This document shows positions 11,546-62,276 of a stretch of DNA of 64,000 nucleotides, piece after piece; position 1 is the stretch's first letter, and every line of letters begins with the position of its first letter. The stretch lies in assembly GCF_003334765.1 (NCBI RefSeq), contig NZ_QOWT01000010.1. One strand, written 5' to 3'. The position numbers were made by a program, and so were the translations under genes. Source of the DNA: Escherichia coli. Its GTDB lineage: Bacteria > Pseudomonadota > Gammaproteobacteria > Enterobacterales > Enterobacteriaceae. Below the pieces are notes generated by a model, which did no database searches, was not told the origin of the DNA, and saw only the letters and a list, made by a program, of their open reading frames with translations.

Positions 11546-11688
11546 GGCGTTCCTTCACCTGTTGTTTGAATGCCGCGACTCTACGCGCCACTCCACACCT
11601 GTGTATTAGCGAGTTTTCATCCCTGCGAGATGCTTTCAAAGGAACTTACGCCGTGCTGCAAGAGTTGCATTTTTATGGAAAGCCGCAC

Positions 11689-11723
11689 GCAAAAAAGCCC
11701 GGATGCAGACGCATACCGGGCTT
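11689..11723 (-). terminator. Rho-independent terminator downstream of feoC
   Basis: On the minus strand AAGCCCGG-13 nt loop-CCGGGCTT followed by TTTTTT; lies 25-60 bp after the feoC stop. Confidence 0.7.
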
Positions 11724-11747
11724 TCCAAAACAGGCGATGGAGTAAGG

Positions 11748-11984
11748 TTAACGCAGCGCCCACCACTCGCGCAGACAGGCTTTTCCTTCCGGGCAGCTTT
11801 TACAACTGCCAGAGAGGCAGCCGTCAGGTTCTTCCTGAATCCGCACGGCTTTGCCCATACTTTCCAGTTGTTGCAGCATGGCGTTAATCATTGGCTGTGG
11901 AGTGTTCAATGTCTGGCTTATCTGGGCCGCTTCCATACGGCCCCGTAACGCCAGCAAATCGCGCACCTGAATAAGTGAAGCCAT
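11748..11984 (-). CDS. feoC: FeoC, ferrous iron transport transcriptional regulator-like protein
   Basis: 78 aa from ATG at 11984 ([17 protein letters not shown]...); ORF track extends 3 codons upstream via a non-ATG start; start overlaps feoB stop as TAATG. Confidence 0.88.
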
Positions 11985-14305
11985 TAATGGCAATCACCGG
12001 TGGTGCTGGCTGCGCAGCAACTGCTTACCGACTTGCGGGTTGCCAGCAGTTCGATATCCACCCGGCTACGCGCGCGGCGCAGCAGACCGATAACCACGAT
12101 GTTAAACAGGATAACCGCCAGAATGCACACCAGGCTGTAAGTTGGATGCTGACTGTAGCTGGCGACCTGATAGAACAATGTTGCCAGTGAGTAAGCGATA
12201 TTCAGCCCCCACAGGATGGAGAAGCCCATCCAGCCACGGCTTGATTCACGGGCGATAGCCCCCATCACCGAGATACATGGTACATACAGCAGGACGAAAA
12301 TCAGGTAGCTGTAAGCTGCTGCTGCGCTACCGAATTTCTGATCCATCACGCCCATCGCCCCGGTACCCATTTCGCCGTCGCCTTTGCTGGCTTCAATGGG
12401 GTTCATCAGTACGCTAAGGCTGAAGGTGTCTTTCAGGCTCTGCCAGGTTTCATCTATCGCACTGAACAGCTCTTCACCGAGGTTAAATTCTGCCGGATTG
12501 AACTCTTCGTCCTGAATATTTTCTGCGGTGTAGAGGGTGTTGAGCGTACCCACTACCACTTCTTTCGCCATGGCACCTGTAAACAGGCCAACCGTTGCCT
12601 GCCAGTTATCTTCATGCACGCCAATTGGCTTGAAGACCGGGGTGATCACCCGGCTGACGGACGCCAGCGCCGAGTCGTTGATGTTATCGACGATTTTCCC
12701 GCTCAGCGAGAAGCTGTTGAAAGCGCTCAGGAAAATGCTGACGATGATGATCACTTTACCAGCACGCAGAACGAAGCCTTTCAGACGCTGCCAGGTCTGG
12801 ATAATCAGGCTTTTAACGTGTGGTACATGATAGACCGGCAACTCCATGACAAACGGCGTCGCTTCACCGCGCATGATGGTGTACTTGAGCATCAGGCCAG
12901 TCAGCACCGCCATCACAATACCCAGCATATACAGCGAGAAGACCGCCAGCGCACCGTTCTGCCCGAAGAAGGCAGCCGCGAATACTGCGAAGATAGCCAG
13001 ACGCGCGCCGCAGGACATAAACGGTGCCATCATGATGGTCATCAGACGTTCACGCGGTGCATCAAGCGTACGTGCACCCATTACCGACGGTACGTTACAA
13101 CCGAAACCGACGATCAGCGGCACAAAGGATTTCCCCGGCAAGCCCAGCGCCTGCATCAGACGGTCCATCACAAACGCCGCACGCGCCATATACCCGGAGT
13201 CCTCAAGGAAGGAGAGGAACAGGTACATCATGCCAATCTGCGGCACCAGTGGCAGCACGGTGTTAATGCCGCCACCCAGGCCCTGGGCGAGGAAGATAGT
13301 CAGCCAGTCCGGGAAGTGGAGCGTGTAGCCAATCCATTGAATACCATGCACAAATAGCGCCACGGAGCCGACGTCAAACAGCGGCTGTAACGCCCCGCCG
13401 ATGTTGATAGCCAGCAGGAACATCAGGTACATCACAAAGAGGAAAATCGGCAGACCGAGGAAACGGTTGAGCACGATTTTATCTACCGCAGTGGTGAAAC
13501 GGCTGGGTTCTGCCGTCAGGGTGTTGCTTACCACATCACAGATGGCAGCAATGCACTGGTAACGCGCATCGGCAATGTGCAGCGCCGGATCGTCCATCTC
13601 ATTACGCAGACGGGCGAGGGCGGCATCCAGATGCTGCGACGCTTCACCGGCGTAGGCGCGGCTGTAGATATCGCCTTCCAGCATTTGCAGGCCCAGCCAG
13701 CGACGTTGTTTCAGCGGGATGTCGGAAGGCATCACTTTTGCCAGTGAATCTGCTTCGTTGAGCAGCGGCTGTGCGTAATGCACCAGTTCCACATTCTCGT
13801 TAGCTTTATAGCGATCAATCGCCAGCTTGAGCGCTTCAATACCGCGACCACGGGTTGAAACCAGCGGGATCACCGGACAGCCCAGACGCGCCGACAGAGC
13901 ATCAATTTCAATACGAATATTTTGCTTCTCGGCAATGTCGAGCATGTTCAGTGCCACAATGCAGGGAATGCCGAGTTCCAGCAGTTGTAGCGTCAGGTAC
14001 AGGTTACGCTCAAGGTTAGACGCATCCACCACGTTAATCAGCAGGTCGGCGTCGCCACTCAAAATGTAGTGACAGGCGATTTGCTCATCGAGCGAGGTCT
14101 GCGATGAGATGGTGGTCAGAGAATAGGTGCCGGGCAGGTCCACCAGCGTGACCTGATGATCGGTGGTGGAGAATTGCCCTTCTTTACGTTCGACGGTAAC
14201 GCCAGCCCAGTTACCTACACGCTGACGTGAGCCAGTGAGCTGGTTAAATAACGTTGTCTTGCCAGAATTTGGATTACCAATTAAGCCAATGGTTAATTTT
14301 TTCAT
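11984..14305 (-). CDS. feoB: Ferrous iron transporter FeoB (GTPase + permease)
   Basis: 773 aa from ATG at 14305 ([26 protein letters not shown]1 motif GNPNSGKT); ORF track adds 4 upstream codons. Confidence 0.95.
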
Positions 14306-14321
14306 TGTTGTTATCACCGTA

Positions 14322-14549
14322 TTAACAGGAAACCGCTTCCACTTCTAATAAGGCCAGATCTTTTTTGCGTAATACCAGGCTCACACGACGGGTTTCGATA
14401 TGAATGGGGTCGCCGAGTGGAGCGACGCGCACCACATTAAAAGAGGAGCCAGGTAACATGCCAAGAGAAAGCAGTTTTTGGCGATATGCCGGGCTGATTT
14501 CACGGGAAAAGCCAGTGATTTTCCACGCAGTATCTGGAGTGTATTGCAT
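14322..14549 (-). CDS. feoA: FeoA
   Basis: 75-aa [40 protein letters not shown]...; 16 bp upstream of feoB. Confidence 0.95.
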
Positions 14550-14654
14550 AGGTGCCTACTTGTTTCTCATTAACTGGATAACTACCTCATGGGGCGTTTG
14601 ACAGCGACATGAGACCAGATGATTTGCCAACAAAGGAGAGATTAAATAATCAAC

Positions 14655-14680
14655 AACACAATGATAATGAGAATGGTTTC
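14655..14680. promoter_or_regulatory. Candidate Fur box upstream of feoA
   Basis: aatgataatgagaatgg resembles the Fur consensus GATAATGATAATCATTATC; about 110 bp upstream of the feoA ATG. Confidence 0.5.
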
Positions 14681-14738
14681 TATCAGCAATACTTAAAATG
14701 TGTGCGAATGTTGGTTTGAATAATAATCTGACTCAATG

Positions 14739-14752
14739 TTGATGTGGCTCAA
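14739..14752. promoter_or_regulatory. Candidate FNR site upstream of feoA
   Basis: ttgatgtggctcaa = TTGAT-N4-cTCAA, one mismatch to TTGAT-N4-ATCAA. Confidence 0.5.
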
Positions 14753-14880
14753 GGTTATATCGCAGCGAAAATATAATTCGAATAGTGAATTACCCGGACT
14801 GGCTAATGTTTAATTAAGGTTTCAGTTGTTAATGAAATGATAAATATTGCCGGAATATATTATGAGTTTGGCTGTGGAAT

Positions 14881-14913
14881 AAAAATGCCGGAGATATTCT
14901 CCGGCACTTTTAT
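14881..14913 (-). terminator. Rho-independent terminator downstream of tex/yhgF
   Basis: tgccggag-atatt-ctccggca hairpin flanked by an A-run on plus (T-run on minus). Confidence 0.65.
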
Positions 14914-14930
14914 GTCAGGCAAGGCGTTCG

Positions 14931-15004
14931 TTGCCAGATGCGGCGTGAACGCCTTATCTGCCCTACGATTTCGTGCAAATTCGAACCGTAGGCCAGTACG
15001 GGCG
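14931..15004. repeat. REP palindromic element(s)
   Basis: gccagatgcggcgtgaacgccttatctgccctacg ... cgtaggccagtacgggcg immediately after the tex stop. Confidence 0.7.
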
Positions 15005-15005
15005 T

Positions 15006-17327
15006 TTAACGTTTTTTGCCCATTGCCGCCGCCAGCGCATCCATCATCGCGCTATTACCGGCAGGCTGCGCTTCACGACCGCGTGGTTTGGCTGCCGGGC
15101 GGTTGTTTTGCGGGCGTTCATTACCGCCGCCGCGACGAGCGTTGGTTTCGCCAGGCTGCTCATCCAGGCGCATAGTCAGGGCGATACGTTTACGCTGAAG
15201 ATCCACTTCCAGCACTTTCACCTTCACAATGTCGCCCGCTTTCACCACGGTATGCGGATCTTCCACAAACTTGTTCGACAATGAAGAGATGTGAACCAGG
15301 CCGTCCTGATGCACGCCAATATCGACAAACGCGCCAAAGTTGGTGACGTTGGTCACTGCGCCTTCGAGGATCATACCCGGTTGCAGGTCGTTCATTGTCT
15401 CGACGCCATCGGCAAACTGAGCGGTTTTAAATTCCGGACGCGGATCGCGACCCGGTTTTTCCAGCTCTTTGATGATGTCGGTTACCGTCGGCACACCGAA
15501 TTTCTCATCAGTAAAGTCAGACGCTTTCAGGTTACGCAGTTCGCTGCTGTTACCCATCAGATCTTTCAGTGCCTGCTGTGTTGCTGCCAGAATGCGTTCC
15601 ACCACCGGATAGGCTTCCGGGTGAACGGTAGACGCGTCCAGCGGGTTATCACCGTGGTTAATGCGCAAGAAGCCCGCGCACTGCTCGAAGGCTTTCGGCC
15701 CCAGACGGCTCACTTTTAACAGTTGCTGACGGTTCTGGAACTGACCGTTCTCATCGCGCCAGGCAACGATGTTTTGCGCCATCATGCGCGTCAGGCCCGC
15801 CACGCGGGTTAACAGCGGAACAGAAGCAGTGTTGAGATCGACGCCAACGGCGTTTACGCAGTCTTCTACTACTGCGTCCAGTTTGCGGGCCAGTTGCGTC
15901 TGGCTGACGTCATGCTGATACTGACCTACGCCGATAGATTTCGGATCGATTTTCACCAGCTCCGCCAGCGGATCCTGCAAACGGCGGGCGATAGACACCG
16001 CGCCACGCAGCGAAACGTCGAGATCCGGGAACTCCTGTGCAGCCAGCTCGGAAGCCGAGTAAACCGACGCGCCTGCTTCGCTGACGATTACTTTCTGCGC
16101 GGTCACTTTCGGGAACTGCTTCTGCACATCGAGATAGAAACGCTCAGTTTCGCGGGAAGCTGTACCGTTACCGATCGCTACCAGTTCAACGTTATGTTTT
16201 TCACACAGCGCAGCAACGGTCATCGCTGCTTTTGCGGCCTGTCCGGTGTGCGGGTAAATGGTGTCGGTCGCCACCAGTTTGCCAGTGGCATCGACCACCG
16301 CCACTTTTACCCCAGTACGCAGACCCGGATCGAGGCCCATCGTTGCACGCAGTCCGGCAGGGGCCGCCATCAGCAGATCGTGCAGGTTACGGGCAAAGAC
16401 GTTGATTGCTTCATCTTCCGCACGTTCGCGCACGGTGCCCATCAGTTCGGTTTCCAGATGCATCAGCACCTTGATGCGCCACGTCCAGCTCACCACGCCT
16501 TTGCGCCAGCTATCCGCCGGGGCATTGTTCAGGCGCAGGCCAAGGTGATCCATGATGATTTGCTCGCAATAGCTCTCTTTGGGCGGCTCATCGAACTGTG
16601 GATCGGCATTCAGCGAAAGCTGAAGTACGCCTTCGTTACGCCCACGGAACATCGCCAGCGCGCGGTGAGAAGGCACCGTGGACAACGGTTCGTGATGATC
16701 GAAATAGTCGCGGAATTTCGCCCCTTCCTCTTCTTTACCGCTCACCACCGTAGAAACCAAATGCGCGTTCTTCCACAGATAATCACGCACTTTCGCCAGC
16801 AGCGCGGCATCTTCGGCAAACCGTTCCATCAGGATATAGCGCGCGCCATCCAGCGCGGCTTTGGTATCTGCCACGCCTTTATCGGCATCAACATATTGTG
16901 CAGCGGCGACTTCTGGCGTGTGTGACGGATCGCTCCACAGCAGGTCAGCCAACGGCTCAAGCCCTGCTTCAATGGCGATTTGCCCGCGGGTGCGGCGTTT
17001 AGGTTTGTAGGGCAGGTAGAGGTCTTCGAGTTCGGTTTTGCTTAGGGTGGCGTTGATGGCCTTCGCCAGATCATCGGTGAGTTTGCCTTGCTCGGAAATG
17101 GACTTGAGGATCGCCTGACGTCTCTCTTCCAGCTCGCGCAGATAGCTCAGACGCGTTTCCAGATTACGCAGCTGCGTGTCATCCAGACCGCCGGTGATTT
17201 CCTTACGATAACGTGCGATAAACGGCACGGTATTCCCTTCGTCAAGCAGGCGAACGGCAGCGTCAACCTGTTCCGGGCGCGCCTGAATTTCACCCGCAAT
17301 AATGCGGCAGAACGAATCATTCATCAT
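15006..17327 (-). CDS. tex: Tex-like transcription accessory protein with S1 domain (YhgF)
   Basis: 773-aa ORF; [43 protein letters not shown] (Tex N-terminus); C-terminal S1-like region and basic tail. Confidence 0.93.
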
Positions 17328-17900: not shown

Positions 17901-18127
17901 CTCGTTGATTCCCTTTGTCTGTTTGATAATGCGCACATTGGGTATAACGTGATCATATCAACAGAATCAATAATGTTTCGCCGAATAAATTGTATACTTA
18001 AGCTGCTGTTTAATATGCTTTGTAACAATTTAGGCTGAAATTCATACCAGATTTAGCTGGTGACGAACGTGAGCTTTTTTAAGAATACACGCTTACAAAT
18101 TGTTGCGAACCTTTGGGAGTACAAACA

Positions 18128-43730: not shown

Positions 43731-44894
43731 ATGTTTGTAGAAGCATTGAAACGCCAGAACCCGGCGCTGATTTCCGCCGCACTAAGCCTGTGGCAGCAGG
43801 GCAAGATCGCCCCGGACAGCTGGGTGATCGACGTGGATCAGATACTGGAAAACGGTAAGCGGCTGATTGAGACGGCGCGGCTTTACGGCATTGAACTGTA
43901 TCTGATGACCAAGCAGTTTGGTCGTAATCCGTGGCTGGCGGAAAAATTGCTGGCATTAGGCTACAGCGGCATTGTGGCGGTGGATTACAAAGAGGCGCGA
44001 GTCATGCGCCGCGCTGGTTTGCCTGTGGCGCATCAGGGGCATCTGGTACAAATCCCTTGTCATCAGGTTGCTGACGCCGTTGAACAGGGCACCGACGTCA
44101 TCACCGTGTTTACTCTCGACAAAGCGCGGGAAGTTTCTGCGGCGGCGGTGAAGGCCGGGCGAATCCAGTCTGTGCTGCTTAAAGTTTATAGCGACGATGA
44201 TTTTCTTTATCCGGGCCAGGAGAGCGGTTTTGCCCTCAAGGTGTTGCCGGAGATTGTCGCCGAAATCCAGAATCTGCCAGGGCTGCATTTAGCCGGACTT
44301 ACCCATTTCCCTTGCCTGCTTTGGGATGAGGCTGTCGGAAAAGTTTTGCCGACACCGAATCTTCACACGCTGATACAGGCACGGGATCAACTGGCGAAAT
44401 CTGGTATTGCACTTGAGCAACTGAACGCGCCTTCAGCGACCAGCTGCACTTCGCTGCCATTACTGGCGCAATACGGTGTGACTCATGCCGAACCCGGTCA
44501 TGCGCTGACGGGCACTATTCCGGCAAACCAGCAGGGCGATCAGCCTGAACGTATCGCGATGCTCTGGTTAAGTGAAATCTCCCATCATTTCCGTGGCGAC
44601 AGCTACTGCTACGGCGGCGGTTACTATCGTCGTGGTCATGCGCAACATGCGTTGGTGTTTACGCCAGAAAATCAAAAGATTACTGAAACCAATCTCAAAA
44701 CTGTGGATGACAGCAGTATCGACTACACCCTGCCGCTGGCAGGCGAGTTTCCGGTAAGCAGTGCAGTGGTGCTCTGTTTTCGCACGCAGATTTTTGTCAC
44801 CCGTAGCGATGTGGTGCTGGTGTCCGGTATTCATCGTGGCGAACCGGAAATCGTCGGTCGTTATGACAGTCTTGGAAACTCTCTGGGGGCGTAA
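43731..44894 (+). CDS. yhfX: YhfX, putative PLP-dependent racemase-like (alanine racemase fold) protein
   Basis: 387-aa [46 protein letters not shown]. Confidence 0.83.
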
Positions 44895-60754: not shown

Positions 60755-60768
60755 TTGATGTAAATCAA
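60755..60768. promoter_or_regulatory. FNR site of the nirB promoter
   Basis: ttgatgtaaatcaa = TTGAT-N4-ATCAA, perfect half-sites, about 60-70 bp upstream of the nirB ATG; the surrounding sequence matches the nirB promoter as I recall it. Confidence 0.8.
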
Positions 60769-62262: not shown

Positions 62263-62276
62263 GTGATTTTGATCAC
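62263..62276. promoter_or_regulatory. Candidate CRP site in the tsgA-ppiA divergent region
   Basis: GTGAttttgaTCAC (GTGA-N6-TCAC) about 135 bp upstream of ppiA; a second weaker gtgattttgtgatc at ~62202-62215. Confidence 0.5.

Follow-up and report, generated by a model that had tools for sequence, protein, structure and literature searches.

The stretch upstream of feoA is the promoter region of the known feoABC ferrous-iron transport operon of E. coli K-12, a reading to which we give a probability of about 0.9, and the Fur/FNR dual control of this operon is already known; it has been textbook knowledge since 1993, with the exact sites held in genome-scale datasets, so the discovery value is small. 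Positions 11700..15010 of the window, by which is meant the whole 64,000-nucleotide stretch of DNA that was analysed, show 100% identity with E. coli K-12 MG1655 as well as with many further strains, and the feo stretch is found in all 5426 complete E. coli genomes. The operon is coded on the minus strand, with feoA at 14322..14549 (75 aa), feoB at 11984..14305 (773 aa, annotated ATG at 14305, the stop TAA at 11986..11984 included) and feoC at 11748..11984 (78 aa), each given both by its open reading frame and by RefSeq, in the case of feoA by the annotation of the identical MG1655 sequence. The upstream neighbour is yhgF (tex), with its end at 15006, and the intergenic region of 456 bp between yhgF and feoA starts with a REP element (14926..14963) and the hairpin terminator of yhgF (14886..14906, no strand assigned, found by a terminator scan), which together stand between yhgF and the feo control region. 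The terminator constitutes the upstream limit of this control region, which is therefore placed at about 14550..14880. The REP element shows a sub-threshold match to the REP-derived naRNA4, with 32 bits vs a gathering score of 59.5, and an Rfam search of 11600..15100 gave nothing at the gathering score, only REP-related and other weak matches.

The window was joined to the published maps by the relation x = 3552734 - v2, where x is the window position and v2 the U00096.2 coordinate, set by the ArcA site of Park 2013 (3537888-3537908 = 14826..14846). The relation reproduces two independent values, namely the start of the FNR motif of Myers 2013 (3537982, window 14752) and the feoA ATG, which falls at 3538185 (3540163 in version 3), and as a by-product there is now one coordinate map on which the promoter and its transcription start stand together with the binding sites for ArcA, OmpR/RstA and FNR and with both Fur boxes. 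In Table S6 of Park 2013 the ArcA site has an offset of -191..-171 relative to a transcription start that was determined by experiment (taken from EcoCyc or Kim 2012), and from this offset the start of feoAp is derived, indirectly, as 3538079, which is window 14655 on the minus strand. The derived start fits a conserved TATCAT 6 nt upstream of it (14661..14666, minus strand), the putative -10 hexamer, which is nearly invariant across genera, and this is preceded after a 17-bp spacer by a putative -35 hexamer TTGCTG (14684..14689, minus strand), read from the sequence, the TTG of which is conserved in the alignment. A consensus promoter scan did not report the feoA promoter, which was below its threshold with a -35 region matching at 3/6 positions; it was read by eye, and is backed by conservation and by the start obtained from Park 2013.

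This core promoter, TTGCTG-17-TATCAT, is covered by Fur. The Fur ChIP-exo peak P104 of MG1655 (3538047-3538080, PMC10164565), found in iron-replete cells only, corresponds to window 14687..14654, and the footprint and the proximal Fur box cluster within it (14654..14687, minus strand) extend from -32 to +2 of the indirectly derived start, overlapping the -35 region, the spacer, the -10 region and the start site. The hexamer array spans 14657..14687 and reads GATAAT GAGAAT... from 14663, this being the GATAAT repeat that the first-pass annotation had described as Fur-box-like. Three 19-mers in 6-bp phase, at 14657, 14663 and 14669, agree with the consensus GATAATGATAATCATTATC at 13/19, 13/19 and 12/19 positions, respectively. 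Single matches of 13/19 are unremarkable, with 16 of them in the window and with 20% of shuffles of the region attaining 13/19, and taken alone they would suit the view that both the Fur-like and the FNR-like string match only by chance in intergenic DNA that is AT-rich. Plain matching to the 19-mer consensus was dropped as non-discriminating on its own, and a 6-bp-phased statistic was used instead, by which the triple is the best of the window and is attained by 0.9% of shuffles of this AT-rich region. The triple coincides both with the ChIP-exo footprint and with Fur sites given by Chen 2007 (PMC2189734), with 13.4 bits at 3538065 (window 14669) and 10.9 bits at 3538059 (window 14675), so that the Fur-box-like reading of the repeat holds. 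The same paper, for which no Fur DNase footprint at feo was available, has a second Fur cluster with 10.5 bits at 3538006 (window 14728), and according to its treatment of feo the pair of Fur boxes marked in Kammler 1993 is covered by the two clusters, one box by each. The second cluster corresponds to a predicted distal Fur box (14719..14737, minus strand, centred at -73), with 11/19 consensus matches in our count and no separate ChIP-exo peak listed, and as this box abuts the FNR site, competition between Fur and FNR is raised as a possibility.

Two other Fur-related positions were seen in the window. The best single Fur match is found at 44193..44211 (GATAAAGAAAATCATCGTC, 15/19) and is probably due to chance, since it is located inside a 387-aa ORF (43731..44894). 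A further MG1655 Fur ChIP-exo peak, P103 ('ompR, intergenic'), corresponds to about 17962..17995 in the greB-ompR intergenic region, over GAATCAATAATGTTTC, and is of some interest in that OmpR in turn activates feo (Gerken 2020).

The FNR site TTGAGCCACATCAA is located at 14739..14752 on the minus strand, which is the feoA-sense strand (the plus strand reads TTGATgtggCTCAA), at -203..-190 from the feoA ATG and centred at about -90.5 from the transcription start. A position weight matrix (PWM) trained on the 62 ChIP-bound sites of Myers 2013 Table S6, with feoA left out, gives the site 15.7 bits, a score that stands at the median of the training sites, and ranks it second in the 64-kb window behind the one at nirB (60755..60768); dinucleotide shuffling of the 456-bp intergenic region attains this score in 0.7% of cases. 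In TTGAGccacATCAA, 9/10 core positions agree with the inverted repeat TTGAT-N4-ATCAA. The sequence TTGAGCCACATCAA upstream of feoA is itself listed in Myers 2013 (PMC3688515, Table S6), with 14.6 bits and under an FNR ChIP-seq peak. The FNR-like motif of the first-pass annotation is hence present and bound in vivo, the comparison with published binding maps puts the FNR ChIP-seq and Fur ChIP-exo signals on the very motifs it had pointed out, and its estimate that the Fur array is some 60 bp nearer to the gene than the FNR site corresponds to 55 bp from edge to edge and about 73 bp from centre to centre. Published in vivo occupancy at both sites, shuffle frequencies of 0.007 for the FNR score and 0.009 for the phased Fur triple, and deep conservation all speak against chance matches as the origin of the two strings; the ChIP data together with the conservation refute this reading, and we regard it as having practically no chance of being right. 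The nirB FNR site, TTGATTTACATCAA, is of consensus quality, and a further site, GTGATCAAAATCAC, belonging to ppiA/tsgA, is found at 62263..62276; both are present in Myers 2013 Table S6, and the distance from the nirB site to the feoA site is 5 bp shorter in the window than by the published coordinates.

Conservation was followed in a scan with one genome per species, comprising 80 Enterobacteriaceae feo loci, for 73 of which the region upstream of feoA was extracted. The best FNR-type match per locus has a median of 14.9 bits (n=73), and in the alignment conservation is highest in the block aTTGatGATAaAAACCATTCTCATTATCATtg, which contains the -35 hexamer, the Fur array and the -10 hexamer. 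In 71 of the 73 species the FNR motif is separated from this promoter block by 78-79 bp, six apparent outliers being cases where the anchor pattern had matched 6 nt further downstream. This spacing is kept despite diverged flanks and a leader length that varies from about 31 to 109 nt, and it argues for a defined geometry in which FNR site and feo promoter work together, and for face-of-helix-dependent activation from about -90. Class II activators are centred at -41.5, and most FNR-activated promoters are of class II, while spacing studies of FNR and CRP have shown that activation is possible from about -61, -71, -82 and -92. A class II geometry was rejected for feo, where no -10-like hexamer is located 22 bp downstream of the site. 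The position near -90.5 is close to the class I position at -92, and we infer that FNR acts on feo from a far-upstream position of class I type, although activation from one FNR site near -90 would be unusual.

Further upstream, the ArcA box TTGTTAATGAAATGATAAATA of the Park 2013 supplements (14826..14846, plus strand, 17.6 bits) and the upstream OmpR/RstA-like motif TTATCAtttcaTTAACA of Gerken 2020 are one conserved element. The motifs of Gerken 2020 are located at -294..-278 and -165..-150 from the ATG, that is at window 14843..14827 and 14714..14699, and the second of these is the RstA/OmpR-like motif CCAACAttcgCACACA (14699..14714, minus strand), at about -59..-44 from the transcription start. 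In that study OmpR shifted only the fragment with the upstream motif, the fragment with the 14699..14714 motif alone being unshifted, and a strong activation of feo by OmpR was found in envZ R397L. Park 2013 reported an ArcA ChIP peak at the ArcA box and found feoABC to be 3.7-fold lower when arcA is deleted. The sequence ACCTTAATTAAACATTA (14805..14825) adjoins the ArcA box and is conserved to the same degree in genera ranging from Escherichia to Klebsiella and Kluyvera; no factor is assigned to it in the published work on feo regulation cited here. The alignment shows the ArcA/OmpR box together with ACCTTAATTAAACATTA, and also the ACATTC..CACA of the 14699..14714 motif, to be conserved in many genera. 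The distal Fur box, the ArcA/OmpR box and the RstA/OmpR-like box, all of them published, were absent from the first-pass annotation.

Anaerobic induction together with iron repression, as proposed from the two motifs, is backed by binding and reporter data that were published for these very sequences. Several papers credit Kammler 1993 with Fnr activation and Fur repression of feo. In a fur deletion the feoA and feoB transcripts and a feo::lacZ fusion are up, and a published feoA-lacZ fusion shows Fur repression only anaerobically, which its authors explain by activation through ArcA and FNR. In Myers 2013 (PMC3688515) feoA has a ratio of 0.136 in the aerobic-vs-anaerobic table, alongside nirB and nikA, and in iron-replete glucose medium (Table S9) there is an FNR peak at feoA with no FNR-dependent expression change, the missing effect being attributed by the authors to masking by Fur; their main text gives feoA as FNR-activated in nitrate, from another study. 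Binding with no change in expression indicates that the contribution of FNR is conditional, and much of the anaerobic induction of feo may be carried by ArcA. It might even be that the induction is mainly due to ArcA, possibly with a factor of OmpR/RstA type on the upstream box, and that the FNR site is occupied with a minor or ArcA-dependent role. The strong ArcA box with its ChIP peak, the fall of feoABC in the arcA deletion, the OmpR shift of the upstream-box fragment with the envZ R397L effect, and the FNR binding with no FNR-dependent change under the Myers 2013 conditions are all in line with this. However, an FNR motif kept with its 78-79 bp spacing in 71/73 species is hard to explain for a bystander, and the papers that cite Kammler 1993 for Fnr activation, like the nitrate activation listed in Myers 2013, also speak for FNR, and an induction led by ArcA is in our judgement unlikely.

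With FNR and Fur both acting on feo, as preferred here, a σ70 promoter TTGCTG-17 bp-TATCAT would start transcription at about 14655. In iron-replete cells Fe2+-Fur binds the overlapping boxes (-32..+2) and blocks RNA polymerase, as seen from published ChIP-exo and reporter data, and a second predicted Fur box is located beside the FNR site. When oxygen is missing, [4Fe-4S]-FNR binds TTGAGCCACATCAA at about -90.5, as seen by ChIP-seq, and would activate transcription from a class-I-type position, with the alpha C-terminal domain of the polymerase as the probable contact. A contribution also comes from ArcA at -191..-171, OmpR binds a fragment with the same upstream box and RstA has been reported in Salmonella. 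The net outcome is that feo is high only with oxygen absent and iron low.

Transcription from this start should give feoA a 5' untranslated leader of about 105 nt (14550..14654, minus strand), with a Shine-Dalgarno sequence AGTAGG at 14560..14555 and a stem-loop at 14618..14574, the inner arms of which are CUCAUG/CAUGAG. The leader is only about 31 nt in Enterobacter, Leclercia, Lelliottia and Pseudescherichia, where about 70 nt are missing, and up to 109 nt elsewhere. The E. coli leader does not exceed its own shuffles in stability (z = +0.76), RNAalifold over 35 leaders gave no consensus structure, and the leader has no match to an Rfam family. A hand-drawn structure is 65% paired vs 33-43% for slid controls, the structure itself being derived from E. 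coli, and the covariance model R1 recovers only the leaders of Escherichia, Citrobacter and Salmonella. In other genera hairpins of different sequence are found at the same position of the leader, with a mean per-species z of -0.9; support for a structure conserved between genera is weak.

At the feoB-feoC junction the feoB stop (11986..11984) and the feoC ATG (11984..11982) share the A at 11984 in a TAATG overlap (11982..11986, minus strand; context ...TGC CAT TAATG GCT...), in agreement with RefSeq. The one-base overlap from which translational coupling had been proposed is real, but it is located 2.5 kb outside the interval 14550..14836 under which it had been entered. The junction is polymorphic in E. 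coli, with TAATG in 4595 of the 5426 complete genomes (85%) and a spacer in the other 831 (15%), as in O83:H1 NRG 857C, where the annotation leaves 10 nt between feoB and feoC and the junction reads TAAGGACACGACAATG. Among 77 species representatives with a readable junction TAATG is present in only three, an Escherichia sp. near E. coli (L004), Superficieibacter electus (L058) and Enterobacteriaceae UBA5654 (L042), and in nearly all the remaining species, E. albertii and E. whittamii among them, the two genes are separated by 6-13 nt, rarely more, a spacer with GGA or GGAG directly after the stop. The close juxtaposition of feoB and feoC is conserved in these 77 representatives and the overlap itself is not.

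The junctions compared in detail were the window (11982..11986, minus strand), L083 (351..366), L005, L003, L042 and L058. Their alignment gives an 11-nt deletion and a synonymous change from CAC to CAT, so that CAC TAA GGACACGACA ATG becomes CAT TAATG, and judged by this alignment TAATG is the derived state, generated by an 11-nt deletion that took out the ancestral spacer (10 nt in the E. coli genomes that keep it) with its Shine-Dalgarno sequence (AAGGA). After the deletion only a weak GGUGA is left at -14..-10, 9 nt upstream of the feoC ATG, which could permit independent initiation of feoC. By the same comparison TAATG arose independently in two other enterobacterial lineages (Superficieibacter electus and UBA5654), three times in all, and this threefold origin, together with its commonness in E. 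coli, suggests that re-initiation after the feoB stop suffices for FeoC and favours the idea of translational coupling. With the ancestral Shine-Dalgarno spacer deleted, feoC is most likely translated by ribosomes that end at the feoB stop and then re-initiate, and a feoB-feoC coupling is plausible; a literature search found no experiment on it. FeoA, FeoB and FeoC are reported to form a 1:1:1 complex in V. cholerae, and FeoC is reported to affect the stability or function of FeoB in some species.

It might also be that the overlap is a scar left by a neutral deletion and plays no part in coupling, with FeoC made by initiation at GGUGA or with an output that hardly matters in E. coli. This would agree with the spacer and its GGA/GGAG being retained in 831 of the 5426 E. 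coli genomes, in E. albertii, in E. whittamii and in some 70 further species, and with a role of FeoC that is debated, the protein being dispensable in some species. A scar explains less well that the spacer was lost three times independently, always with the same in-register TAATG, and that this form has reached 85% in E. coli, and stop/start overlaps of one or four bases are known to couple genes by termination-reinitiation. We consider a neutral scar possible but doubtful. TAATG is a segregating deletion allele and not a conserved design, and the two forms constitute a natural allele pair for the study of coupling and FeoC dosage. As a tentative extension, which is rather improbable as it stands, FeoC would in the deletion allele be strictly dependent on re-initiation, so that the alleles would differ in their FeoC:FeoB ratio and possibly in the oxygen response of ferrous-iron uptake; separately, the feoA leader of about 105 nt would carry a hairpin that is variable between lineages and conserved in position.

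The locus is the same as feoAp of E. coli K-12 (Kammler, Schoen and Hantke 1993; Chen 2007; Myers 2013; Park 2013; Seo 2014 / Gao 2023; Beauchene 2015; Gerken 2020), with 100% identity, and the FNR, ArcA and OmpR motifs and the two Fur boxes are located at the published coordinates with no difference, the additions made here being the cross-mapped coordinates and the conservation figures. Like class I CRP/FNR promoters, in which the activator contacts the alpha C-terminal domain, feo has a single FNR dimer site far upstream of -35, at about -90.5, the activation from there being putative. It differs in this position from nirB in the same window (60755..60768), which is of class II with its site at -41.5, and in having ArcA and response-regulator sites near the FNR site. 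The feoABC operon of Yersinia pestis has two promoters with a putative Fnr site inside P1, and as at feo of E. coli a Fur site lies over the gene-proximal promoter with an Fnr-like site upstream; however, mutations in fnr, arcA and rstAB are without effect there, there is no aerobic iron repression, and the promoter region has no DNA similarity to that of E. coli. Like other stop/start overlap pairs (ATGA, TGATG, TAATG), feoB-feoC has a one-base overlap with no strong Shine-Dalgarno sequence left, but here the overlap is a recent deletion still segregating within the species, and the coupling is putative. The Fur promoters of fepA-entD, fhuA and ryhB resemble feo in having boxes phased by 6 bp over the core promoter and occupied in iron-replete cells only. 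The siderophore systems are more repressed anaerobically, whereas feo, the ferrous system, is anaerobically induced via FNR and ArcA.
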